DNA of 64,000 bases from Alphaproteobacteria bacterium (GTDB lineage Bacteria; Pseudomonadota; Alphaproteobacteria; Bin95). The stretch lies in NCBI GenBank assembly GCA_963665325.3, contig OZ224045.1, forward strand, positions 1,280,001 to 1,344,000. Reading direction: 5' to 3'. A program made the position numbers and the translations under genes. How positions within the stretch are numbered: position 1 is the stretch's first letter; every line of letters begins with the position of its first letter. This document shows positions 1 through 18,674 of the stretch, piece by piece. Below the pieces are notes generated by a model. That model was not told where the DNA came from and did no database searches. It saw only the letters and a list, made by a program, of their open reading frames with translations.

Positions 1-681
1 ATCGCCTCGCTCATCCGCCGCCTCGACGAGATGGGCGTGGCGCGCAGCCTTTACGATGCGGTCATGTCTTCGGGCGAGTCGGCCTGGGCCGCTCTCAAGC
101 ACCGCGACGACGCCTGGCACAAGCGGCTCGGCCGGTGCTGCCTGCATGTCGGGCCGGAGCGCGACAACGATGTGCGCGAAGGCAACGGGCTGGACATCGT
201 GGCGCAGGTCGAGGAGGCCGACTTCATCCTCTGTACCGGCATCGACGGCTGGGACGAGACCGTGGAGGATTACGAGCCGCTGCTGGCGGCGGCCGCGGCG
301 CGCGCGCTCCCGATGGTCTGCGCCAATCCGGACCTCGTGGTGCATATCGGCGACAGGCTCTCGCTCTGCGCGGGCTCGCTTGCCGTTCGCTATGTCGAAC
401 TCGGCGGCGACGTTTCCTGGCACGGGAAGCCGGACGGCGCAGTGTTCGCCCGCGCGATGGCGGCTCTCGGCTGTCCCGACGAAGGGCGCGCGCTGATGAT
501 CGGCGACGGGCTCAGGACGGACGTCGCCGGCGGCAACGGCTTCGGCATCGACACGCTGTTCCTCTCGGCCGGCATCCATGCGGATGAGGTCGGCTCGCCG
601 CCCGACCCGGCGCGACTGGCGGCGCGCTCCGCCGAACTCGGCGTCCGCCCGACTTGGGCTACGGAGGCGCTTTGCTGGTAG
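1..681 (+). CDS. HAD-superfamily class IIA hydrolase (TIGR01459-like), 5' end outside window
   Basis: Frame open from base 1; motifs CANPDLVV, HGKP and MIGDGLRTDVAG (HAD motifs III/IV). Confidence 0.85.
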   Translation: MASLIRRLDEMGVARSLYDAVMSSGESAWAALKHRDDAWHKRLGRCCLHVGPERDNDVREGNGLDIVAQVEEADFILCTGIDGWDETVEDYEPLLAAAAARALPMVCANPDLVVHIGDRLSLCAGSLAVRYVELGGDVSWHGKPDGAVFARAMAALGCPDEGRALMIGDGLRTDVAGGNGFGIDTLFLSAGIHADEVGSPPDPARLAARSAELGVRPTWATEALCW

Positions 682-694
682 GAAGGCGCTTCGA

Positions 695-1486
695 ATGAGC
701 GTGAGAGTCGAAAAGGACGGCGCCGTCTGGACCGTGATCCACTCCCGGCCCGAGGCGCGCAACGCAATGGATCCGGAAAGCGCGGTGGCGCTTTACGATG
801 CTTTCCGGGCCTTCGAGGCGGATGACAGCGCGAGCGTGGCGGTGTTCTGGGGCGAGGGCGGGGCTTTCTGCGCAGGCTGGGACCTGAAGCACGCCGCCGC
901 GCTCTCCGGCGCCGAGGCCCTTGACCCGTTCGATTTTCCCGACGAGGGCGAGCCGCCCATGGCTGCGATGGGGCCGAGCCGTCTGGAGCTGTCCAAACCG
1001 GTCATCGCCGCGGTGGCGGGGCCGGCGGTGGCGGGCGGCATGGAACTGGCGCTGTGGTGCGATATCCGGGTGATGGAAGAGACCGCCTTCATGGGTGTCT
1101 ATTGCCGCCGCTGGGGCGTTCCCCTGATCGATGGCGGCACGGTGCGTCTGCCGCGCCTGGTGGGTGAGGGCCGGGCGATGGACCTGGTCCTGACCGGGCG
1201 TCGGGTGGATGCGGACGAGGCCCTTGCTACCGGCCTCTGCGAGTATGTGGTGCCCGAAGGCGAGGCCCGGGAAAAGGCCGAGGCGCTGGCCCGTGACATC
1301 GCCCGCTTCCCGCAAAGCTGCATGAAGGCCGACCGGCGGTCTGTCCGCGCGCAGCACGGGTTGAGCGAGCGTGACGCCTTGCGGCAGGAATGGCGGGGGA
1401 GCAAGGCCGAAGTCACGGGGGGCATCGAGGGCGCGGCAAGATTTGCGGGCGGAAAGGGGCGAGGGGGAGATTTCAGCGATGTGTGA
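695..1486 (+). CDS. Enoyl-CoA hydratase/isomerase (crotonase family)
   Basis: RPEARNAMD, AFCAGWDL, KPVIAAVAGPAVAGGMELALWCDIRV; ATG at 695 follows GGAAGG. Confidence 0.92.
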   Translation: MSVRVEKDGAVWTVIHSRPEARNAMDPESAVALYDAFRAFEADDSASVAVFWGEGGAFCAGWDLKHAAALSGAEALDPFDFPDEGEPPMAAMGPSRLELSKPVIAAVAGPAVAGGMELALWCDIRVMEETAFMGVYCRRWGVPLIDGGTVRLPRLVGEGRAMDLVLTGRRVDADEALATGLCEYVVPEGEAREKAEALARDIARFPQSCMKADRRSVRAQHGLSERDALRQEWRGSKAEVTGGIEGAARFAGGKGRGGDFSDV

Positions 1487-1582
1487 CCGGTAGCCCTTCA
1501 GCCCATCGGGTGTGGCTCGCCGTGCGAACGGCCGGCGGCTATCTGCTGGCCGCCGGTCGCTTCGCCCGCATGGAAGGTGGCG

Positions 1583-1954
1583 CTACTCGTCCGCGCGGAA
1601 ATTGAGCTCGATCAGGACCTCGTTCGGGTCGCGGACGAAGATCTGCCGGAGCTTGCCGCCCGGCACCAGCCGGGTCTCGTGCTCATAGCCCTTCTCGCCC
1701 AGGAAGGCGGCGTAGCGGTCGAAGCCTTCGGCTGCGAAAGCCACATGGTCGATGCAGCCGGAGCCGGAGGTTTCCTGATCGTCCACGCCGATCAGGTGGA
1801 CCACCGCTTCCGGGCCGCAATAGAGCCACGCGCCGGGAAAATCGAAATTCGGCCGGTCGCCGTTCTCGAAGCCCAGAATGTCCTCGTAGAACGCGACCGT
1901 CTCGTCGAGCTTGTCCGTCATGATGTTGACGTGCTGGAGCATGGTGAGCGTCAT
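1583..1954 (-). CDS. VOC/glyoxalase family protein
   Basis: HVNIMT...FYEDILG, IDHVAF and QIFVRDPNEVLIEL metal-binding pattern. Confidence 0.9.
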   Translation of the reverse strand: MTLTMLQHVNIMTDKLDETVAFYEDILGFENGDRPNFDFPGAWLYCGPEAVVHLIGVDDQETSGSGCIDHVAFAAEGFDRYAAFLGEKGYEHETRLVPGGKLRQIFVRDPNEVLIELNFRADE

Positions 1955-1968
1955 GGGGGCTGCCTCCT

Positions 1969-3483
1969 TCAGGCTTGGCTAGGCAGGTTGGAAGGGATGT
2001 CGGGGTCGAGAGGATAGATCGGGCGGCGCAGCTTCTTCCAGGGAAACAGGCTGTAGTCCGAGGTCGTCGTTCCCGGCCCGGCGAGCATCACGATCTCGCG
2101 CGCCATCGGCTCGAACCCGGCCCGGAAATGCTGGCGCGACTTGATGAGGACATAGCGCTTGGACGTCGGGTCGATGCCGCAATGGGTGAAGCAGCCGGTA
2201 TCGAACGGCTCGTAGCGGTCCTCGGAAACGACGACCTCGGCCGCGCCCGTGTCCAGCACGACGGTGCGTCCCAGGGACAGCCGCACGCCGGTGAACATCG
2301 GCCCGGTGACGGTAAACTCGCCGTCGGTGATCCGCCGTACCCGCCCGCGGAGGCGGAGCGGTTCGCCCTTCAGCTCCATGGCCGGCATGTCGGTCTTGCC
2401 ACCGACCTCGACCTCGACCTCGGCCCCGACGCCGGCGGCGATCAGCTCCGCCACGGCCTCCGGGTCCGCGAAGGGTCCGGCAACCATGTCCGTCAGGCCC
2501 TGCTGCAGGCATTCGCGTAAGGCGGCCATGACATCCTGGTTGCCGCCGGACCCGGTATTGTCGCCGTGATCGACCAGCAGCACGGGGCCGTCCCCGTCTT
2601 TCATCGCAGCCGCGCGGGACACCGAGTCCGCCATCGGCTCGATCTCGAACAGGAAATCGGCGCGCCGGTCCCAGGCCTCGCCCATCAGGTCGAGCGCCAG
2701 GCGTTCCGCCCTGTCCCGCGGCCCGTGCACCACGGCCGAGATGCCGACATGCTCGATATCGGCGAGGGGGAAGCAGCCGAACACCGAGGCCAGCAGGACC
2801 TCCTCGCTCTCCTCGGCGGCGCGGGCGCGGTCCATGATCGCCTGCATGGGCGGGCGCGAGGGCGAATGCACGTTCATGTGCGGCAGGAGCGGCAGCGAAT
2901 GCCAGGCGGTCGCCGGCGCCGCGCCGTTCATTGTCCCGAGCAGCGCTTCGCCGGCCCGCATGCCGGTCTCGTACATGTCGATATGCGGGTAGGTGCGGTA
3001 GCCGGCCAGCACCGTCGGCAGCAGGGCCAGGTCGCGCGTCAGGTTGGTGTGGAAGTCGAGCGCGACGGCTACCGGCAGGTCCGGCGCCTCGGCCCGGATC
3101 CGGCGCAGCAGCTCGCCCTCGCCGTCGTCGAAGCCCTCTGTCACCATCGCGCCGTGGAGGTCGAGGAAGAGCGCGTCGCAGCCTTCGCGGACCGCTTCCA
3201 GAATGGCCTCGGACACGAGGTCGAGAATGTCATCGGGCGCCGGCGCGCTCGGGTGCGCGTTCGCCGCGACCGGCACGGCGAGCGCCGCGCCCTCGCGTTC
3301 GGCGATGTCGATGAAGGCTGCGAGCGGGTTGTTGGTGCTGCGATAGACGCGCACCGCCTCTTCGCCCCGCGCCGGCCCGTCGGTCGATCCCACCCGCCCG
3401 AAGGCCGCGACGGGCGTGGGAACCGGCGAGAAGCTGTTGGTCTCATGGCGCATCAGCGCCGCAACGAAGCGTTTTCGATTCAT
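1969..3483 (-). CDS. M81 family metallopeptidase (MlrC-like)
   Basis: HETNSFSP, LDLHGAMV, DGEGELL, LDFHTN, YRTYPHID, IKSRQHFRAGF; start at MNRKRF (3483). Confidence 0.9.
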   Translation of the reverse strand: MNRKRFVAALMRHETNSFSPVPTPVAAFGRVGSTDGPARGEEAVRVYRSTNNPLAAFIDIAEREGAALAVPVAANAHPSAPAPDDILDLVSEAILEAVREGCDALFLDLHGAMVTEGFDDGEGELLRRIRAEAPDLPVAVALDFHTNLTRDLALLPTVLAGYRTYPHIDMYETGMRAGEALLGTMNGAAPATAWHSLPLLPHMNVHSPSRPPMQAIMDRARAAEESEEVLLASVFGCFPLADIEHVGISAVVHGPRDRAERLALDLMGEAWDRRADFLFEIEPMADSVSRAAAMKDGDGPVLLVDHGDNTGSGGNQDVMAALRECLQQGLTDMVAGPFADPEAVAELIAAGVGAEVEVEVGGKTDMPAMELKGEPLRLRGRVRRITDGEFTVTGPMFTGVRLSLGRTVVLDTGAAEVVVSEDRYEPFDTGCFTHCGIDPTSKRYVLIKSRQHFRAGFEPMAREIVMLAGPGTTTSDYSLFPWKKLRRPIYPLDPDIPSNLPSQA

Positions 3484-4086
3484 GGGGCGCCATTCTGTCG
3501 GAACCGGCCCGGCATGGCAAAGCGCCGGACGGCATGCACCGGACGCATATCGCGGCCCCGGGCCCGGCTTCGGACAGGTCGGAGACCGGCCAGCCCGGAA
3601 GATTGTTCTCTTTTTCAGGGAAAAATATCCCGAACAGATTGACATATGGAAATCCTGTGGCATTATGGGCCGGAGGAAGGAAGCGGCGTCCGGAGGCCGC
3701 TTTCCGCCACGCCGGAGCCGGATCAAAACCACCTGAGAAACGGACAGGAGAGGTGCGCGCTATGCCTCGCGCGCGCAATCAGGCGCGCGAACCGCGCCGG
3801 CGCCGACGCCCGCCCCCGCCCACGCGCGTTACGCGCGAAACAGGGACCCGTTTGCCGGGCGAGCCGGCGGCGGCGCAAACGCCGCCATTCGTAATGTTCG
3901 CCGCGTTCCGCGCGGCGATTGGAACAAAACGGATACGGAGAACCGATGAGCGATATGCCCACCCTTGCCGCAAGAGGCCCCGGATCGCGGTCCGGGGCGA
4001 CGAATTCCCCCAGCGTCATTCCGGCCGGAGCGCAGCGGAGAGCCGGGACCTCGTGCGGCTCAGCCGGAAACCCCTTTGCGGCGGAC

Positions 4087-4134
4087 CATGACAAAACATG
4101 ACATTTCCGAAGGGCCTCATGACAAAACATGACA
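4087..4134. repeat. Two exact 17-bp direct repeats CATGACAAAACATGACA, giving four CATGACA boxes
   Basis: Copies at 4087-4103 and 4118-4134, read directly from the sequence. Confidence 0.85.
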
Positions 4135-8707: not shown

Positions 8708-9302
8708 ACCGGAACCGCCAGCCTGTCGGTTGTCGGACATGATCCGAACCCGCCGATCGTCGTGATCCGGGGCCCTCTTCCCGGTTCGTTGGCAGGCTTT
8801 CGTCACCCATCGGCTTCCGAGATCGGTTCCGGATGGACAAGCTGATGAGAGATCGCAGTCAGTCGTTCGGCGCGGGCGGATCGGCCAATGCCCCGAGGTC
8901 TCCCGCCTCGTCGATCAAGCAGACTTTCATCCAGGCCCGAGAGTGGCTATGGCCACCGGATGGTGGCCATAGGGTGTAAAAGTACCGCGCCGACGAGGCC
9001 TACGGTCAACCATTGCCCCTTGAATGCGCCACTGCACGCTCGGCGACTTGCGAGCGGTCCTCGCCGAGTTCGGGGAAGTGACAGATCGCGACGTGATCGT
9101 CACCGGTGTCAATCGGCGGGGGTCGATGTCGCACGCACACGGCTGGCAGCCGTTCACCCTGACTCTCCACGGTTTCGACGTCCGGGTTGTTGTTAAGCGT
9201 GGAAGATTGACCCCCTGTTGGGGGTTATCGGCGTCCAAAATTGACCCCCCATGGATTGTGTCCATGAACACGCCCTGTCGTTGGACGGACGGGGTGGGGG
9301 AG

Positions 9303-10624
9303 ATGCTGGTTGTGGAGACGATAGCGCGGATCCGTCGGGATCATCTGGTGAAGGGCGTTCCGATCAAGAAGCTGGCGCGGGATTTGAGGGTTTCGAAGAA
9401 CACGATACGCAAGGTGGTTCGGGGCGATACGACCTCGCACAGCTATGAGCGCAAGATCCAGCCGATGCCGAAGCTTGGGCCTTGGGTGGCAGAGCTTGAG
9501 CGCCAGCTGGAGGCCAACGAGAAGAAGAAGCGCCGGGATCGCCTGTCCCTGCTGCAGATCCATGAGGACCTTGGCGAGCTGGGCTACAAGGGCGGCTATG
9601 ACGCGGTCCGGCGCTACGCCAGGGCGTGGCGGCGCCGACGCCGTCTGTTATCGCCGTCGCAGGCCTATGTGCCGCTGATCTTCGATCCGGGCGAGGCCTA
9701 CCAGTTCGACTGGAGCCACGAGTATGCGCGTCTGGCGGGAGCGACGACCAAGGTGAAGGCGGCGCACATGCGGCTGTGCCACAGCCGCATGTATCTGGTG
9801 CAGATCTTTCCCCGCGAGAGCCAGGAGATGGTCTTTGAGGCGCACGAGCGTGCCTTCCGCTTCTTCGGCGGGGTCTGCCGACGGGGCATCTACGACAACA
9901 TGAAGACGGCGGTGAACACGATCTTCGTCGGCAAGGAGCGTGCCTACAACCGCCGCTTCCAGGAGATGTGCTCGCACCATCTGGTGGAGCCAGTGGCGTG
10001 CACGCCAGGGGCGGGCTGGGAGAAGGGGCAGGTTGAGAAGCAGGTGGGAGACCTTCGCGGGCGTCTGTTCGCGCGCAGCCCGCGGGGCCGCTCCTACACC
10101 GAGATCAACGAGTGGCTGATGGATCGGTGCATCGAGGAGGCCAGGAAGCAGCCGCATCCGACGATCGAGGGCAAGACGGTGTGGCAGGTATTCGAGGAGG
10201 AGCGGCCCTTCCTGATGGCATACCGCGGTCCCTTCGACGGCTTCCATGCCAGCGAGGTGTCAGTCTCGAAGACCTGCCTGGTGCGCTTCGACAACAACCA
10301 GTACAGCGTCTCTGCCCGCGCGGTGGGACGGCCGGTGGACGTGCGGGCCTATGCCGAGCGGATCGTCATCCGCCAGGACGGCGAGATCGTCGCCGAGCAT
10401 CCCCGGAGCTTCGGGCGCGGTCGGTTCGTCTACGATCCGTGGCATTACGTGCCGATCCTGACGAGGAAGCCCGGCGCACTGAGGAACGGCGCACCCTTCA
10501 AGGACTGGCAGTTGCCCAACGCGCTGGGCCGCCTGCGAACCCGGCTCGCCGGCCACGACGACGGCGACCGGCAGTTCGTCAAGATCCTCGCGGCGGTGCT
10601 GGAGGACGGGCTGGAGGCGGTCGA
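9303..10624 (+). pseudogene. istA: IstA of element B, 5' part (interrupted)
   Basis: MLVVETIARIRR, AYQFDWS, IYDNMKTAV, WEKGQVE; homology breaks after LEDGLEAV at TCGA. Confidence 0.9.
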
Positions 10625-10771
10625 TGAGCGGGCGCAGGCTTTCAGCGGCGATCAGGGGCTGATCGGCTCGGATTAATCGAGGTTTTGGATTGGGTGCCCC
10701 CCGGCGATCTTGCAAGAAGGCCGCCGGAGGGCTTGTCTCGGTGACAGTGACATCAACCTGAGACGGCCCCA

Positions 10772-11386
10772 ATGTCGCACAAGCTGTTCCGGCACTCCAA
10801 TCTCTCCAACGCCCGGGTTTGGGATTTTCTGAAGCAGGTCGACGCGGCCGAGGCGGAGGCGTGCCGGGCGGCGGGTTGCCCGCGCTGCGGCGGCGCGCTT
10901 CACAGCGCGAGCTACCCGCGCAAGCCGCACGGTCTGGCGGCGAATCTTCGGAACGACGTTCGGCGCTTCAGCCTGTGCTGTTCGGTGTGCCGACGCCGCG
11001 TGAAGCCGCCGTCGGTGCGTTTCTTCGGCAGGCGCTTTTACGTCGGGGCGCTGTTCCTTGTGGTGAGTGCGCTGGCTGTGGCCGGCGGCGCGCGGTTGCA
11101 GACGATCGCGCGGCGGTGCGGGGTTCCGGCCTCGACGCTGAAGCGCTGGCGGCGCTGGTGGCTGGAAGCCTTCCCGCTGACCCGGGAGTGGCAGGCGAGA
11201 CGGGGCGAGCTGGCGGCGCCGCCCGAAGAGGCGCCGCTGCGCCGGCTGCTGCGCATCATGCGGGGCCGTGGCTTCCGCTCGCGGCTGCTGCGGAGCCTGG
11301 TCTGGCTGATGCCGTGGACCGGCTTTTGCGCGCTCGGCGCAGGTCCGGCTTCGCCCGCAGAAAGCGTTTCTATGATGCACGGATAG
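10772..11386 (+). CDS. Zn-ribbon/HTH accessory protein of the transposon (DUF6431-like)
   Basis: CPRCGG and CCSVCRRR cysteine pairs, HTH-like STLKRWRRWW; lies directly upstream of the DDE gene. Confidence 0.65.
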   Translation: MSHKLFRHSNLSNARVWDFLKQVDAAEAEACRAAGCPRCGGALHSASYPRKPHGLAANLRNDVRRFSLCCSVCRRRVKPPSVRFFGRRFYVGALFLVVSALAVAGGARLQTIARRCGVPASTLKRWRRWWLEAFPLTREWQARRGELAAPPEEAPLRRLLRIMRGRGFRSRLLRSLVWLMPWTGFCALGAGPASPAESVSMMHG

Positions 11387-11434
11387 GGCACCGCATCATC
11401 GGCACCTCCACGAAGCAGCGAGGGGGATGCCGGA

Positions 11435-12910
11435 ATGAACAGCAACGACGGGAGCGAGCGTCGCGACCGGTGGGCGCGGTTGCGCTTCGCGGTGGTCGGG
11501 CCGCTTCTGGCCTCGCCGCCGCCGGCGGGGCGGCTGCACGCCGAGCTTGAGCGGCTTGCCGAACGCGAGTGGGATCACCCGTCCGGCAAGGGCCGGGTGC
11601 GCTTCGCGGTGTCCACGATCGAGCGCTGGTACTACCAGGCGCGGGCGGCGGACAACGATCCGGTGGGGGCGCTCAAGCGGCGCCCGCGCGCCGATGCCGG
11701 GCGCCCGCGCGCGATGTCGCCGACGCTGATCGAGGCGCTGCACGAGCAGTACCGGGCGCATCCGTCGTGGTCGGCGCAGCTTCATCACGAGAATCTGGCC
11801 GCGCGGGTCGAGGCCGATCCCGAGCTCGGCCCGATACCGTCCTACGCGACGCTGACCCGGGCGATGCGGGCTCGCGGGCTGGTACGCAAGCGCCGGCGCA
11901 AGTGGCATGAGAGCGAGGCCAGGCCGGCGGTCGAAGCCCGCGAGGTATTGAGCTACGAGGTCTCGCGCTCTCACGCCCTGTGGCACGCCGACATGCACAG
12001 CGCCAAGCGTCGCGTGCTGACCGCCTCGGGCGAGTGGAAGACGCCGATCCTGCTCGGCTTCCTCGACGACCACTCGCGCCTCGGCTGCCACCTTCAGTGG
12101 TACCTCGCCGAGACCGCCGAGGTGTTCGTCCACGGCCTTTGCCAGGCCTTCATGAAGCGCGGTCTGCCGAGGTCCCTGCTGACCGACAACGGCGCGGCGA
12201 TGACCGCGGGCGAGGTCGAGGAGGGGTTGCACCGGCTCGGCATCGCGGGGGTCACGACGCTCGCTTACAGCCCCCATCAGAACGGCAAGATCGAGTCGTT
12301 CTGGGGCACGGTCGAATCGCGCCTGATGGCTCAGCTCGAAGGCGTCGACGCGCTTACCTTGAAGATGCTCAACGACGCCACCATCGCCTGGCTGGAGCAG
12401 GACTATCACCGCCGCAAGCACCGCGAGCTCGGCATGACGCCGCATCAACGCCTGGCCGGGAGCGTCGACGCGTCGAGATCCTGCCCCGGCTCGGCCGAGC
12501 TCAAGGCGGCCTTCCGCATCACCAGGAAGCGCACGCTCAGGCGCTCGGACGGCACCGTCTCGGTCGAGGGCATCCGCTACCAGGTGCCACAGCCGTGGCG
12601 CCACCTGCGCGAGGCCTGGATCCGTTACGCGCGCTGGAACCTCGCCAGCGTCGATCTGATCGACGGTCGAGGCGGCGAGCGCCTGTGCACGCTGTACCCC
12701 CTCGACAAGCGCGGCAACGCCGATGGCGTGCGCCGTCCCGCCGGCCCCGGCGGCAACGATGGCAATGGCGGCGCGGGGACGGGGGAACTTCCGCCGCTGC
12801 TCAAGGGCATGCTCGACGCCCAGGCCGCAACCGGCCTGCCGCCGGCCTGGCTGCCCCATGACAAGACGCCCGGTCCGGGCGAGGACGAAGATCGGGGAGA
12901 TGCGCCATGA
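11435..12910 (+). CDS. DDE transposase/integrase (rve core, Mu/TnsB/IS481-like)
   Basis: LWHADMH, LLTDNGAAM and QNGKIES triad; Mu C-terminal-like RRSDGTVSVEGIRYQVP. Confidence 0.92.
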   Translation: MNSNDGSERRDRWARLRFAVVGPLLASPPPAGRLHAELERLAEREWDHPSGKGRVRFAVSTIERWYYQARAADNDPVGALKRRPRADAGRPRAMSPTLIEALHEQYRAHPSWSAQLHHENLAARVEADPELGPIPSYATLTRAMRARGLVRKRRRKWHESEARPAVEAREVLSYEVSRSHALWHADMHSAKRRVLTASGEWKTPILLGFLDDHSRLGCHLQWYLAETAEVFVHGLCQAFMKRGLPRSLLTDNGAAMTAGEVEEGLHRLGIAGVTTLAYSPHQNGKIESFWGTVESRLMAQLEGVDALTLKMLNDATIAWLEQDYHRRKHRELGMTPHQRLAGSVDASRSCPGSAELKAAFRITRKRTLRRSDGTVSVEGIRYQVPQPWRHLREAWIRYARWNLASVDLIDGRGGERLCTLYPLDKRGNADGVRRPAGPGGNDGNGGAGTGELPPLLKGMLDAQAATGLPPAWLPHDKTPGPGEDEDRGDAP

Positions 12911-13740
12911 ACCGGGAACTGCTCACCTTCTACGGGCTCAAGTGGAACCCCTTCGCCACCGACCTGCCGGTCGACAGTCTCATGGCGACGCCTGCCGTCG
13001 ACAGCTTCTGCCTCAGGATCGAGCGCCACCTGGTGCGCCAGGGCGGCTTCGCCTTGATCGCCGGCGAGCCCGGCGCCGGAAAGAGTGTGGCGTTGCGCCT
13101 GCTCGCCGACCGTCTCGGCCGCTGCGAGGGGCTCAGCATCGCCGCCATCACCCATCCCTCCTCCCGGCTGTCCGACTTCTACCGCGAGATCGGCGAGATG
13201 TTCGGCGTCGACCTGATGTACAACAACCGCTGGGCCAGCTTCAAAAGCCTGCGCGAGCGCTGGCTCGCCCATGTCGACGATACCCGCATGCGCCCCGTCG
13301 TGCTCGTCGACGAGGCCCAGGAGCTGCTGCCCTCGGTGTTCTCCGAGATCCGCCTGCTGGCTTCGACCGACTTCGACTCGCGCGCCATCCTCTCGGTCGT
13401 CCTCGCCGGCGACACGCGCCTGCTCGACAAGCTCCGCCAGCCCGATCTGCAGCCCATCGCCTCGCGCATCCGCCAGCGCCTGGTCATGACCAAGGCCGAG
13501 GCCGGCGACCTCGCGGCCCTGCTCGACCATCTGATCGAGCAGGCCGGCAATCCCGGCCTCATGACCGCGGGCCTCAAGGACACCCTGGTCGCCCATGCCG
13601 ACGGCAACCCGCGGGCGCTCACCGTCATGGCCGACGCCCTGCTCGCCGCCGCCGCCGAGAAGGAGCGCGAGGTCCTCGACGAGAAGCTCTTCATCGAGAC
13701 CCTGGGCGAACCCGCCAAGCCGAGGAGGGCGCGGCGGTGA
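12907..13740 (+). CDS. ExeA-like AAA+ ATPase (TnsC/MuB-like transposition helper)
   Basis: FYGLKWNPF, GEPGAGKS, VLVDEAQ, GNPR; ATGA overlap with the transposase. Confidence 0.88.
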   Translation: MNRELLTFYGLKWNPFATDLPVDSLMATPAVDSFCLRIERHLVRQGGFALIAGEPGAGKSVALRLLADRLGRCEGLSIAAITHPSSRLSDFYREIGEMFGVDLMYNNRWASFKSLRERWLAHVDDTRMRPVVLVDEAQELLPSVFSEIRLLASTDFDSRAILSVVLAGDTRLLDKLRQPDLQPIASRIRQRLVMTKAEAGDLAALLDHLIEQAGNPGLMTAGLKDTLVAHADGNPRALTVMADALLAAAAEKEREVLDEKLFIETLGEPAKPRRARR

Positions 13741-14735
13741 AGGGCTTCCCGACACGGGCGCCGGCGGAGCTCGAAGAGCGCCCCCAGGCGCGCCGCTGGA
13801 TGGTCGAGGCGTTGTGGTCCGAGCAGGGCGTCGGCATCGTCGGCGGCGAGCCCAAGTGCGGCAAATCCTTCCTCGCACTCGACATCGCCGTCGCGGTCGC
13901 CGCCGGCGTCCCCTGCCTGCGCCACTTCCGTCCCGCCGCAAGCGGCCCCGTGCTGCTGTTCGCCGCCGAGGACGCCGGCCATATCGTGCGCGCACGCCTC
14001 CAGGGCATCGCAAAGGCGGCAGGCACCGCGTTCGAGACCCTCGACATCGCCGTCATCGACGTGCCCACGCTGCGTCTCGACCATCGCGCCGATCGCCAGC
14101 GCCTGGTCGAGACGGTGGAGCGCGTCTCACCCCGCCTCGTCGTCCTCGACCCCCTCGTGCGCCTGCACGGCGTCGACGAAAATACCGTCGCCGAGGTCGC
14201 CCCCATGCTGGGCTTCCTGCGCGACATACAGCGCCGCTTCGAAACCGCCGTCCTCCTCGTCCATCACGCACGAAAGAGCGGCGGCTCCCGGCCCGGGCAG
14301 GCGCTGCGCGGCAGCAGCGAACTTCACGCCTGGGGCGATTCGAATCTGTACCTGCGCCGGCGAGACCGCCAGATCCTCATGACCGTCGAGCATCGCGACG
14401 CCCCTGGCCTCGAAGACCTCGAGATCGAACTCGCCGACGACGACGAGCGCCCCGCCCTGCGGTTGCGCGAGACGCCGGAAGACCAGGCGCCGGAGCCGGA
14501 TACCCCCGAACGGCGCATCCTGCAGGCCCTCGCCGACGCCGACGCGCCGCTCTCCCAGCGCCGGATCCGCGAGCGCGCGGCAACCCGGCCCGCAACCGTC
14601 GCCGAGGCGCTGCACAGGCTCGTCCGCGAAGGACGCGTCGAGCGCGCATCCGAAGGCGGATACCGCCTCGCCGCCCTCAACGGCAACGACCGCAGGGACA
14701 CGTTACCGAAAACCGTTACCGCCTCGAACCCCTAG
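13737..14735 (+). CDS. AAA_25 / RepA-helicase-like RecA-fold ATPase with C-terminal winged helix
   Basis: GGEPKCGKS, VVLDPL, LLVHHARK, LRGSSELHAWGDS; wHTH ERRILQALA...LVREGRV; GTGA overlap. Confidence 0.85.
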   Translation: MKGFPTRAPAELEERPQARRWMVEALWSEQGVGIVGGEPKCGKSFLALDIAVAVAAGVPCLRHFRPAASGPVLLFAAEDAGHIVRARLQGIAKAAGTAFETLDIAVIDVPTLRLDHRADRQRLVETVERVSPRLVVLDPLVRLHGVDENTVAEVAPMLGFLRDIQRRFETAVLLVHHARKSGGSRPGQALRGSSELHAWGDSNLYLRRRDRQILMTVEHRDAPGLEDLEIELADDDERPALRLRETPEDQAPEPDTPERRILQALADADAPLSQRRIRERAATRPATVAEALHRLVREGRVERASEGGYRLAALNGNDRRDTLPKTVTASNP

Positions 14736-14762
14736 GGAGAGAGGGTAACGGTAACGGGTAAC
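14702..14762. repeat. Inverted iteron-like hexamer array (GTTACC x2, GGTAAC x3) around CCCTAGGG
   Basis: GTTACC at 14702 and 14715; GGTAAC at 14744, 14750 and 14757. Confidence 0.65.
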
Positions 14763-15008
14763 ACCGCTCCCATTGTCACACTGCGTAAAGCGGCCGGCCC
14801 GTGGCCGGAAGCTTGCTTACGGCCATGGATGCACTCCGTCGGAGGGACGGCGGCGGGTCACCCGAAGGGCCGGAGCGCAGCGCAGGAGCCGCGAAGCGGC
14901 TTGACGCGCCGACGGCCGTCCGACACCCCCGCCGTCACGCCCGGCCCGACGCCTGAAAACCATCGAACAACGTGACCATCCCGCCATCAGATACCGAGAG
15001 CACACTCA

Positions 15009-15205
15009 TCGAGGCGGCCTGCGCCGAGGCGCTCGCCTGCGGCGCCTGCAGCGCCGACGTCGTGCTCAACATCCTCGCCCGGCAGCGCCAGCCGGCACCG
15101 CCGGCAATCATCCCGACGCCCGAGGGCCTGAAGCTCCGCCACCAGCCGGTGGCCGACTGTCAGCGCTACGACAGCCTGAGGGAGGCCGGTCATGGAGCGT
15201 CATGA
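15009..15205 (+). pseudogene. istA: IstA of element B, 3' part
   Basis: EAACAEAL...SADVVLNILAR...[12 protein letters not shown], a typical IstA C-terminus overlapping istB. Confidence 0.88.
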
Positions 15206-15920
15206 TGTGCTGGAGATGATGACCCAGCTGAAGCTCGCAGGCATGCGAGCCGCCTATGACGACATCCTCGCCGACGGGCTCAAGCGCCGTCATCCGGTGC
15301 AGCAGATCATCGGTACGCTGCTGCAGGTCGAGATCGCCGACAAGAGGGCACGCTCGATCAAGTACCAGATGGCGTCCGCCAAGCTGCCCACGGCCAAGGA
15401 ACTGGCCGACTTCGACTTCGCCGGCTCGCCGGTCAACGAGCCCCTGATCCAGGAGCTCGCCGGCGGCGGCTTCCTCGAGGGCCAGCGCAACATCGTCCTG
15501 GTCGGCGGCACCGGCACCGGCAAGACCCATCTCGCCGTCGCCGTCGCGCGCTCCTGCATCCGCAAGGGCGCCCGTGGCCGCTGCTACAACGTCGTCGACC
15601 TGGTGAACCACCTCGAGGCCGAACTCCGTGCCGGGCGCCAGGGCCGCACCGCAGACCAGCTCGTCCGACGCGACTTCGTCATCCTCGACGAACTCGGCTA
15701 CCTGCCCTTCGCCCAAGCCGGCGGACAGCTCCTCTTCCACCTCATGAGCCGGCTCTACGAGCGAACCTCGATCGTCATCACCACCAACCTCGCCTTCGGC
15801 GAGTGGCCGTCCGTCTTCGGCGATCCCAAGATGACCACGGCGTTGCTCGATCGTCTCACCCACCATTGCGAGATCATCGAGACCGGCAACGAGAGCTGGC
15901 GCTTCAAGAACCGCTCCTGA
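15192..15920 (+). CDS. istB: IstB ATPase of element B
   Basis: [32 protein letters not shown]. Confidence 0.95.
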
Positions 15921-16253
15921 CCCGCCGCCGGCCTCCCCTGCGGCCCGGTTGCCCCGGTGGGTCAACAGGGACCCCCCACGCGGCTTCGCTCCGCGTAGCG
16001 TGAGACGCTACACGAAGCCGCGCGGGTCCCCCCTATTGACTACCGGGACAACCTCCACCGTGCCTCTCAGGGGGTCAATTTTGCACGCCGATAGGGGGTC
16101 ATTATTGAAAGCCGATTGACACCTCTCCGGCCACGGCGCGCGGGTTGGGCGCTGAAGAGGTGCGACCGGGTCAGTGCCGCCGCCGCCGTACATGGCAGGT
16201 AGCGTTTGAAGATCGCCACCAACCGCCACCCGCGCGATCCGCTTCATGTACAT

Positions 16254-17061: not shown

Positions 17062-17171
17062 TGTTAACGGCGGCGGAATAATGCTCCACAGGAAGCGCCC
17101 GGTTGGTCGGGTCGCGGCGGCGCAAAATTGCGCCAGTGATGCCCCCTTGTCCGTTTGGTCGGGGGCGGGGG

Positions 17172-18674
17172 ATGTATGGGGTGGAGCTTTACGCAGCGGT
17201 ACGACTTGCGGTTGTCGAGGAGGGTCTGAGCCATCATGAGGCCGGTCGGCGGTTCGGGATCGACCGTCGCACGGTGAAGAAGATGCTGAGCTATTCGGCG
17301 CCGCCGGGCTATCGGCGCCGGAAGCCGGTGCGTCGTCCGAAGCTGGACGGGTTCACCGGGATCGTCGATGCGATCCTGGAGGGGGACCGGGCGCCGGACG
17401 TGCCGGTCAAGCAGCGGCACACGGCGCACCGGATTTTCGAACGGCTGCGTGACGAGCACGGGTTCACGGGCGGCTACACCATCGTGAAGGACTATGTGCG
17501 CTCGCGGCGGCAGTCGTCGCGCGAGGCCTTCGTGCCGCTGCATCATCCGCCGGGCCATGCGCAGGTCGACTTCGGCGAGGCGGTGGTCGAGGTCGGCGGG
17601 CGGCGCGAGAAGGTGGCTGTCTTCTGCCTGATCCTGCCGCATAGCGACCTGTGGTTCGTGAAGGCCTATCCGAAGGAGACGACGGAGGCGTTCCTGGACG
17701 GCCATGTCAGCGCCTTCGCCTTCCTCGGCGGGGTTCCGCTTTCGGTGCTTTACGACAACACGACCCTGGCAGTGGCGCGGATCCTGGGCGACGGCACGCG
17801 TCAGCGCACGCGGGCGTTCACGCCTCTGCAGTCGCACTACCTGTTCCGCGACCGCTTCGGTCGTCCCGGCAAGGGCAACGACAAGGGCAAGGTGGAGGCG
17901 CTGGTGAAGACGGCGCGGCGCAAGTTCATGGTGCCGATCCCAAAGGTGCCCGATCTGGATGTTCTGAACGAGCGGCTTCTGGCGCGCTGCCTGGAGCGTC
18001 TCGACGCGCTGCAGCAGAGCGCGCAGGCGGCGGCGTTGCTCGCCGATCTCGACACCCTGCGCGATCTTCCGGGCGCGCCCTTCGAGGCGTGCGAGCATGT
18101 GCCGGGCCGCGTGTCCTCGACGGCGCTGGTGCGCTACCGGTCGGTGGACTACTCGGCCCCGGCGGTGCACGCCCACAAGAAGGTGACGATCAAGGGCTAT
18201 GTCGACCGGGTCGAGATCGCGCTCGGCGCCGGGATCGTCGCCCGCCACCGGCGTTCCTATGTCCGCGGCGACGTCGTTTACGACCCGCTGCACTATCTCT
18301 CGCTGCTGGAGAAGAAGCCGGGGGCGCTGGACCAGGCGGCGCCGTTGCGCGGCTGGAAGCTCGATCCAGCCTTCGACGCGTTGCGCCGCCTGCTCGAGGC
18401 GCGCTTCGGGCCGCGCGGCAAGCGGGACTACATCCAGACCCTGCGCCTGCTGGAGGACTTTCCGGAGCGCCAGGTGACGGCCGCGGTGCGGGACGCGGTG
18501 GCGCGCCGGCTGGTCGGCTTCGATGCCGTCAAGCACCTGCTGCTGGCGCGCATCGAGAAGCGTCCGGCCCATCTCGACCTGACGCGCTACCCGCACCTGC
18601 CGCAGCCCCTCGTCGCCGCCACCCGGGCCGGCGACTATGCCTCCCTGCTGGCCGGAGGGGGCAGTCGTGGCTGA
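17172..18674 (+). CDS. istA: IS21 transposase IstA
   Basis: Identical translation to 4556-6058. Confidence 0.95.
   Translation: MYGVELYAAVRLAVVEEGLSHHEAGRRFGIDRRTVKKMLSYSAPPGYRRRKPVRRPKLDGFTGIVDAILEGDRAPDVPVKQRHTAHRIFERLRDEHGFTGGYTIVKDYVRSRRQSSREAFVPLHHPPGHAQVDFGEAVVEVGGRREKVAVFCLILPHSDLWFVKAYPKETTEAFLDGHVSAFAFLGGVPLSVLYDNTTLAVARILGDGTRQRTRAFTPLQSHYLFRDRFGRPGKGNDKGKVEALVKTARRKFMVPIPKVPDLDVLNERLLARCLERLDALQQSAQAAALLADLDTLRDLPGAPFEACEHVPGRVSSTALVRYRSVDYSAPAVHAHKKVTIKGYVDRVEIALGAGIVARHRRSYVRGDVVYDPLHYLSLLEKKPGALDQAAPLRGWKLDPAFDALRRLLEARFGPRGKRDYIQTLRLLEDFPERQVTAAVRDAVARRLVGFDAVKHLLLARIEKRPAHLDLTRYPHLPQPLVAATRAGDYASLLAGGGSRG

Follow-up and report, generated by a model that had tools for sequence, protein, structure and literature searches.

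A Tn6049-like transposon with a predicted helicase gene, inserted in an IS21-family element of a sponge-associated alphaproteobacterium

The window analysed here is a stretch of 64,000 nucleotides (nt) from an Alphaproteobacteria bacterium (GenBank assembly GCA_963665325.3, contig OZ224045.1, positions 1,280,001 to 1,344,000). Between positions 10625 and 15008, on the + strand, lies a transposon of 4384 bp with TG..CA ends (TGAGCGGGCG...AGCACACTCA). It sits within the istA gene of an insertion sequence (IS) of the IS21 family. The transposon carries four genes, with a palindrome and a conserved non-coding motif at the end of the fourth gene and beyond it (Table 1). By its sequence, the element almost certainly belongs to the Tn6049 family. 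The first three genes form what appears to be a Mu-like transposition core. The fourth is predicted, from profile and fold, to encode a RepA/DnaB-like helicase, and this gene is absent from Tn6049 itself. Coordinates are positions in the window, unless they follow one of the contig names C1 to C5, which belong to the window's own genome (G000), or the number of a related locus.

The element, its copies and its insertion sites

The empty site was rebuilt in silico by removing the transposon and one copy of TCGA, and a search of the genome with the result gave seven uninterrupted copies of the IS (2546 bp) that match at 100% identity and without gaps; an eighth uninterrupted copy shows one gap. 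Because of this match the insertion is exactly delimited, and removal of the transposon restores the istA frame (...LEAV-E-AACAE...). The empty site is also present in contigs of public sequencing runs (joint 10620->15009 in X8). The original prediction for this locus had placed the element inside istA with a TCGA duplication and a restored frame, and had described four genes with ATGA and GTGA overlaps. All of this was borne out. The host IS has at least eight other copies in the genome, and a second, distinct istA-like gene is found in the window at 17103-18674.

The genome consists of five contigs (5.58 Mb, 67% G+C) and holds 24 copies of the transposon. Over all 4384 bases 21 of these are identical, two have a one-base indel, and one is split by another IS. 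Each of 20 copies has its own target-site duplication. Another copy of the host IS bears the transposon at a different position, which means that there were two independent insertions. The element is a recently active transposon, in line with the earlier suggestion that the insertion in the window is recent.

The IS that splits one copy is 2070 bp long (G000:C1:2290873-2292942), is flanked by CTAG, and has 12 identical copies; it sits at transposon position 4108-4111. Seven copies of the transposon lie within 120 kb at G000:C1:1.98-2.10 Mb, six of them in the same orientation. GC skew in this region is unusually strong, at +0.13 to +0.17 per 50 kb.

A search for relatives of the element found 196, and 80 loci were kept, all from metagenome-assembled genomes (MAGs). 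Duplication length was taken as the longest stretch that is identical in both flanks of a copy, where 2 bp or less counts as none. Among the 24 copies of the window's own genome, duplications of 4 bp were found for eight, 5 bp for ten and 6 bp for two, with none for four. For 36 copies of six relative element types the numbers are 15, 16 and zero, with none for five. As a control, mismatched flank pairs reach 4 bp in 4 of 552 cases. The 4-bp duplication first described is therefore true for the copy in the window, but the length is not fixed.

No target consensus emerges across the 51 duplicated sites, where no position exceeds 0.39 bit. There is a weak C at -4 and a weak G at -2. The sequence TCGA, earlier raised with a question mark as a target consensus, occurs at one site out of 51. 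The core would seem to insert almost anywhere, using staggered cuts 4-6 bp apart.

Two copies, at C2:25283-29666 and C4:930514-934897 of G000, have reciprocally swapped flanks: CGACC and ACGG pair across the copies. They are two of the four own copies that lack a duplication. This fits recombination between copies, an unresolved cointegrate, or an assembly mis-join at a 4.4-kb repeat. Loci L038 and L039 of a related MAG show the same reciprocal pattern.

The ends had been described as TG...CA with only short similarity. The TG..CA part stands, but the similarity is not just short: the terminal inverted repeats are imperfect and agree at about 14 of 24 positions (hand count). In relatives the terminal repeats are perfect up to 24 bp (L037), and all start with TGAGCG and end with CGCTCA. 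The left ends of relatives have TGAGCG...TTTCAGCGGG in common.

Table 1. Features of the transposon and its insertion site (positions in the window)
Feature	Position	Strand	Remarks
Interrupted 2546-bp IS21-family IS, left part	9188..10624	+	5' part of istA
Target-site duplication TCGA, left copy	10621..10624	none	flank sequence, reconstructed empty site
Left terminal imperfect inverted repeat	10625..10650	+	begins TGAGCGGGCGCAGGCTTTCAGCGG...
Zn-ribbon + HTH_23 protein, 204 amino acids (aa)	10772..11386	+	39% identical to first gene of Tn6049
DDE transposase, 491 aa, HTH_32 + rve	11435..12910	+	50% identical to Tn6049 transposase
AAA_22 ATPase, 277 aa, MuB/TniB/ExeA-like helper	12907..13740	+	ATGA overlap with transposase gene
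Predicted RepA/DnaB-like RecA-fold helicase domain (AAA_25) + C-terminal winged helix, 332 aa	13737..14735	+	GTG start in GTGA overlap
Palindrome of tandem hexamers (GTTACC... / GGTAAC GGTAAC GGGTAAC)	14702..14762	none	spans helicase stop codon; candidate binding/loading site
Conserved non-coding hairpin-rich motif	14782..14930	+	about 150 nt, 81-90% identical between elements
Right end, two direct CCATC(G/A)(A/G)A...CG.GA sites	14960-14983 and 14984-15008	+	second site is the terminal inverted repeat, ends CTCA
Target-site duplication TCGA, right copy	15009..15012	none	flank sequence, reconstructed empty site
Interrupted IS21-family IS, right part	15013..16121	+	3' end of istA; istB at 15192-15920

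The core genes and the Tn6049 family

A tblastn search of the transposase against plasmid records gave best full-length matches of 50% identity, in Cupriavidus metallidurans and in Pseudomonas aeruginosa pHS87a. These are copies of Tn6049. The Zn-ribbon protein, the transposase and the AAA_22 ATPase match their Tn6049 counterparts in the same order, at 39%, 50% and 52% identity (E 8e-19, 1e-120 and 5e-84); the last counterpart is the ATPase annotated as 'gspA'. The copy on pMOL30 (L091:3195-6711) is 3517 bp long and has a 6-bp flanking duplication. It encodes a 181-aa homologue of the Zn-ribbon protein, a 479-aa transposase, a 277-aa ATPase and a 71-aa protein without known family, and there is no AAA_25 gene in it.

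The order typical of Tn6049, which is a small Zn or 'Mob' protein, a DDE transposase (TnpA), an AAA ATPase and a fourth gene, is found here. So are 12-bp imperfect terminal repeats starting with TG (TGAGCGGGCGCA versus TGTGCATAAGCA, with 7/12 positions in common by hand count). Ends of the form TG.GC....GCA and a double CCATC site at the right end occur in both elements, as do short duplications of variable length (4-6 bp) and multiple copies in the host. The difference lies in the fourth gene. Tn6049 has a small fourth protein ('UF', 71-114 aa), whereas the present element has the 332-aa AAA_25 and winged-helix protein. Tn6049 also lacks the palindrome and the motif, and the present element is 0.9 kb longer.

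The AAA_25 gene is equally missing from the betaproteobacterial relatives of Tn6049, where a 71-114 aa protein occupies the fourth slot. The same layout with such a small fourth gene is seen in Paraburkholderia relatives and in one genome of a sample from the phylum. In this sample, 2 of 400 other genomes have a transposase match at E<=1e-40. The small fourth proteins show no detectable similarity to the winged helix or to the 332-aa protein.

In the accessible part of Janssen et al. (2010, PMC2864759), Tn6049 of C. metallidurans CH34 is given as 3.5 kb long, with 12 copies and a 'gspA' ATPase. The copy on pHS87a has a 4-bp flanking duplication according to the available text of PMC4739549. 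Table S5 of Van Houdt et al. (2012, PMC3414803) lists relatives of Tn6049 as Mob protein, TnpA, ATPase and UF, and the UF cluster in this table varies between lineages. The available portions of PMC2864759, PMC4739549, PMC3414803, PMC3384475 and PMC13192273 say nothing on the mechanism of Tn6049. The family has had a name since 2009-2010, yet it is poorly described, as the original prediction also held. Literature searches found no published description of helicase-bearing relatives of Tn6049 or of an exchanged module.

The Zn-ribbon protein has five invariant cysteines (C36, C39, C69, C70 and C73 in 10 relatives). Its AlphaFold2 (AF2) model was too poor for a fold search, with a predicted local distance difference test score (pLDDT) of 58. 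Going by its sequence relatives, it is encoded by a conserved core gene of the Tn6049 family, with a zinc ribbon, a helix-turn-helix (HTH) and a putative DNA-binding role. An assignment to DUF6431 was dropped: Atlas neighbours are DUF6431-like, which is a lead only, and Pfam gave no confirmation in 10 members.

Three residues of the transposase, D186, D251 and E287, are the same in all seven relatives compared and are candidates for the catalytic triad. The scores for rve and HTH_32 fall under the Pfam cut-offs, and Pfam gives no Mu-transpos_C match. Residues 1-384 however align with a metagenomic transposase that does bear Mu-transpos_C (PF09299), and PHROGs matches the protein to phrog_310 ('transposase', 2e-40). 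The AAA_22 ATPase has a Pfam match at 5e-20 and a PHROGs match to phrog_296 ('DNA transposition protein', 1e-23). Its match to MuB in the PDB is faint (E 0.056). These matches uphold the view that this is an autonomous transposon that encodes an AAA+ helper beside a Mu-like DDE transposase. In such a core, the transposase would cut and join the TG..CA ends, and the AAA_22 ATPase would serve as a target-capture helper of the MuB/TniB type.

Among the four genes there is no family match in Pfam or NCBIfam to a resolvase, TnsA or TniQ. Rfam finds no family at E<=1 over 10500-15100, and a promoter and terminator scan gave no sigma-70-like promoter.

The core can be compared to several known systems. 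Like Mu (MuA/MuB), Tn552 and Tn5053/Tn402 (TniA/TniB), it combines a DDE transposase, which has an N-terminal HTH and an rve core, with the gene of an AAA+ helper just downstream. The TG..CA ends are shared too, as is the presence of multiple sites at one end. It differs in its duplications, which are 4-6 bp instead of a fixed 5, in the absence of a resolvase, TnsA or TniQ gene, and in carrying a helicase of its own. IS21 has a DDE transposase and AAA+ helper pair as well, but the helper here is AAA_22 and not IstB. The best NCBIfam model for the transposase is IS481 (NF033577). This family was rejected: the score of 124 bits is far under the cut-off of 224, and the element has four genes in 4.4 kb, against about 1 kb for a single-gene IS. 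IS481 elements have a single gene.

The helicase gene and its non-coding partners

The fourth protein matches PF13481 (AAA_25) at 5e-36. A profile of 39 homologues finds RepA of plasmid RSF1010 first (1g8y, E 1e-17), followed by DnaB and RadA. The AF2 model has a pLDDT of 89; its top Foldseek hits are DnaB, RadA and RepA, with a template modelling (TM) score of 0.75 on RepA. Residues K43, E78, D79, D138, H176, H177, K180 and R191 are invariant, and these include the Walker and catalytic residues. The last 80 residues fold as a winged helix in the model. Distant homologues are fused to DnaB_N, DnaA_N or MerR-type domains, and the PHROGs matches are primase and helicase families.

The protein family is large. 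Among 8000 candidates scored, 7823 database matches reach E<=1e-5, and there are 489 representative clusters with AAA_25 and a winged helix at E<=1e-30. More than 120 helicase clusters are 72-86% identical. A tblastn search against plasmid records gave only four matches, all at or below 31% identity.

Among solved proteins, RepA of the IncQ plasmid RSF1010 comes out as the best relative of the AAA_25 domain. In both systems a helicase is paired with a primase, which is RepB' in RSF1010 and a Toprim gene in sister elements, and there is hairpin-forming DNA nearby. The oriV of RSF1010 has hairpin priming sites. There are clear differences too. RepA is only about 19% identical, the helicase here is fused to a winged helix, no RepC-like initiator was seen, and the setting is a transposon rather than a plasmid.

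Most of the 80 loci are from Alphaproteobacteria, with many copies each, and some short contigs are binned to other phyla. All four proteins are matched by tblastn in 73 of them, nearly always in the same order. The other seven miss one or two genes, and some of these end at a contig edge. Identities differ from gene to gene in a mosaic way, for example 63/82/88/69% versus 87/77/72/79%, which points to recombination among elements. Contigs from RNA libraries of relatives span all genes.

Median ratios of non-synonymous to synonymous substitution rates (dN/dS) were computed over 78 pairs of 13 element types. They are 0.39 for the Zn-ribbon protein, 0.32 for the transposase, 0.38 for the AAA_22 ATPase and 0.32 for the AAA_25 helicase. 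Within the helicase-bearing clade, the AAA_25 gene is conserved under purifying selection. The original prediction had named variability of this gene among relatives as grounds for its own refutation. At the level of the whole family the gene does vary, but within this clade it is conserved.

Near-complete copies also occur on seven contigs of 3.6-6.5 kb (L011, L012, L013, L036, L046, L049 and L079) that are binned to MAGs of Dehalococcoidia, Gemmatimonadota, Acidimicrobiales, Acidobacteriota and Chloroflexota. These could represent genuine cross-phylum spread in sponges, or mis-binned repeat contigs.

Each arm of the palindrome consists of three tandem hexamers. From lineage to lineage, the tandem units change in concert. 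The repeat GGTAAC goes with recognition-helix class RP, GGGAAC with RN, GGAAAC with RA, and GGAACCG with RH. In all 20 distinct variants caught by the pattern, the repeat class agrees with the residues that open the predicted recognition helix. A hairpin alone needs no such concert, so the concerted change suggests recognition by a protein. The palindrome lacks a T run and is not terminator-like.

Elements that share the motif at 81-90% identity have proteins that are 72-87% identical. RNAalifold finds 47 pairs in the motif, five of them with compensatory changes. Compared to shuffles, the + strand folds with z-scores of -3.8 (RNA) and -3.3 (DNA), and the - strand is weaker. Rfam has no family for the motif. 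Its loops GCGNAGC and CCCGAAGGG resemble DNA mini-hairpins of very high stability that have been reported at origins of single-strand phages.

Not all elements have the motif. In six element types a 289-aa DUF3991+Toprim_2 (DnaG-like) gene is found in its slot. Seven types have the motif and no Toprim gene, and none clearly has both, with L079 ambiguous. Three types have short tails with neither. The genome of the window lacks any homologue of the Toprim protein seen in sister elements.

The combination of helicase gene, hexamers and motif is also found outside the Tn6049 family. Metagenome contigs were scanned for the 39 most conserved positions of the motif, which gave 13 loci. In three of these, from sponge and marine metagenomes (L106, L107 and L111, here called family B), the motif and the helicase belong to another transposon, at its right end. 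The helicase of family B is 69-73% identical to that of the present element (71% for L107), while its transposase is 29-33% identical (29% for L107) and its ATPase 27%. Family B likewise has a DDE and AAA_22 core, hexamer repeats and the conserved motif. It differs in that Pfam does find Mu-transpos_C in its transposase. Its ends have repeated AATAATCCGGGAAA sites and finish with ...GAGACAACA, and in six further loci such an end follows the motif. These comparisons indicate that the module has been exchanged between transposon families.

The family B stretch of L107 is at 55-3682, and the contigs of L106, L107 and L111 are cut, so that they cover neither the left part nor any Zn-ribbon protein gene. 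Locus L102 (3439-3700) has the motif and a family B right end, and the 3.5 kb upstream hold no helicase gene. This locus may be a remnant or a helicase-less variant.

What the module may do

The best explanation overall, to which we give slightly less than an even chance, is a Tn6049-type core with a module that couples transposition to replication. The module is called functional because its dN/dS is like that of the core genes, because the helicase gene is coupled to the core operon in translation through its overlap, and because the repeat and helix classes change together. The link with replication is made because a Toprim gene replaces the motif, in six types versus seven. That the module specifically feeds replication into transposition is a tentative step beyond this, and we would put it somewhat short of even.

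The mechanism would be as follows. The winged helix would place the helicase on the hexamer array, and the helicase would then open a replication fork, or drive one through the element, during transposition. The DNA replicated in this way would be a Mu-type strand-transfer intermediate or a copy-out intermediate. Priming would be supplied by the hairpin motif, or by the Toprim protein in sister elements. The element would depend less on the fork-restart proteins of the host. The module would be an enhancer and not a requirement, with a core that can transpose without it. Mu transposes replicatively with host fork-restart proteins, and to our knowledge fork acquisition by replicative or copy-out DDE transposons is known in detail only for Mu.

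A number of observations weigh against this coupling. The agreement between helix and repeat may be mere linkage, given that both features are adjacent on the DNA. Hairpin arms would also co-vary under a model of structure alone. The tree of the ATPase domain is open at 8 of its 14 inner branches and can not show independent changes, so that one origin per class is possible. The most divergent member, L088, is of class RN and has different repeats. No junction of a right end to a left end was found in the contigs of four public runs, and contigs can not show rare forms. Insertion orientation gives no help either. The five contigs have a GC skew without any replichore pattern, and for this reason there is no test of orientation against fork direction. 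In 18 of the 24 copies the top strand is opposite to the locally G-rich strand; this was discarded as the copies are clustered and the skew is weak.

Elements also spread without the gene. Tn6049 reaches 12 copies without a helicase, as given in the accessible part of PMC2864759. In a Paracoccaceae MAG (L080-L086), the helicase gene is split near residue 160 in all copies, with no intact copy detected. The inserts that split it are three-integrase (RIT-type) or larger. This MAG also has three composites of 8.08 kb that are 100% identical, each with its own 4- or 5-bp duplication. The same frameshift in the helicase gene occurs in all three (split matches 1-71 / 71-160, read directly in L080). 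A frameshift common to separately duplicated composites means that the composite moved after the death of the gene, unless a copy since lost helped in trans. The comparison thus indicates that the helicase is dispensable for spread.

The RIT-type insert in L080 is at 8786-12507, and in L080-L082 such an insert breaks the helicase gene near residue 160. A RIT-like block, whose large and small open reading frames resemble those of tyrosine recombinases, is also found in the genome of the window (G000:C1:446362-452348), exactly in the middle of the palindrome of a degraded related element. RITs inside Tn6049 relatives of Acidithiobacillus have been noted before, by Van Houdt et al. (2012).

Since Tn6049 lacks the gene, family B shares the module, and copies with a broken helicase have spread, the helicase is best seen as an accessory module and not as a substitute for TniQ. 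The latter was the original prediction: the AAA_25 ATPase and the Zn-ribbon protein would take the place of TniQ and jointly choose the target. No TniQ-family match exists in the element, and winged helix, Zn-ribbon and HTH are all DNA-binding domains, which counts for the idea. It is nevertheless largely refuted, and very improbable. The Zn-ribbon protein is a core gene of Tn6049, which works without an AAA_25 gene. The lack of a consensus over the 51 sites, with TCGA found once, and the two independent IS21 insertions at different positions do not look like target choice. In addition, the winged-helix class follows the internal repeats of the element and not the target DNA.

The module could also be a passenger without a role in transposition, which we consider unlikely. 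It would then be cargo or a selfish hitchhiker, such as a replication remnant of a plasmid or integrative element, or a gene useful to the host or in conflict, captured by chance in a variable fourth slot. This slot does vary in the family, as the 71-114 aa proteins without known family in Tn6049 relatives show, and spread proceeds without a functional helicase gene. Horizontal exchange of the module and the size of the AAA_25 and winged-helix family, with its 489 clusters, would suit a passenger as well. A chance captive would however not be expected to be constant in place and orientation, coupled to the transposition operon, accompanied by conserved non-coding partners, and under purifying selection equal to that on the transposase. 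Both known carriers are moreover Mu-like transposons with DDE and AAA_22 genes, and PADLOC gave no meaningful defence match.

A third possibility keeps replication and changes its purpose. The winged-helix helicase would be an initiator, the inverted hexamers an origin, and the motif or the Toprim protein would prime, so that a circle or an integrated copy replicates itself. This would make the element a hybrid of transposon and plasmid. Short repeats in inverted arrays indeed adjoin an initiator-like helicase gene, sister elements have a primase-like gene, and the motif folds better than shuffles. The nearest solved relative is the replicative helicase of a plasmid, and the whole module moves as a unit between transposon families. 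The element has no DNA polymerase or partition gene, though, and the 273 bp 3' of the helicase gene contain no obvious AT-rich unwinding region. The few and distant matches in plasmid records count against it too, as does, weakly, the lack of a circular junction in the contigs examined. Such a minimal replicon is about as unlikely as the passenger. A broader version, in which two Mu-like families exchange a portable minimal replication unit, is doubtful but less so. In this version an initiator-helicase would read an inverted iteron array and, with a priming signal or primase, start its own replication on a transposition intermediate or a free circle.

If this broader version is true, this would be a bacterial DDE transposon that brings its own replisome entry point. 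The family is widespread and abundant, with a helicase, matching repeats and sometimes a primase, which would make a link between transposition and replication directly testable. Nature provides the controls: Tn6049 without a helicase, copies with a broken one, motif versus primase, and four helix classes with four repeat classes. In these sponge-associated bacteria the element is one of the main drivers of genome change, present in 24 copies in this genome and in dozens in related MAGs.

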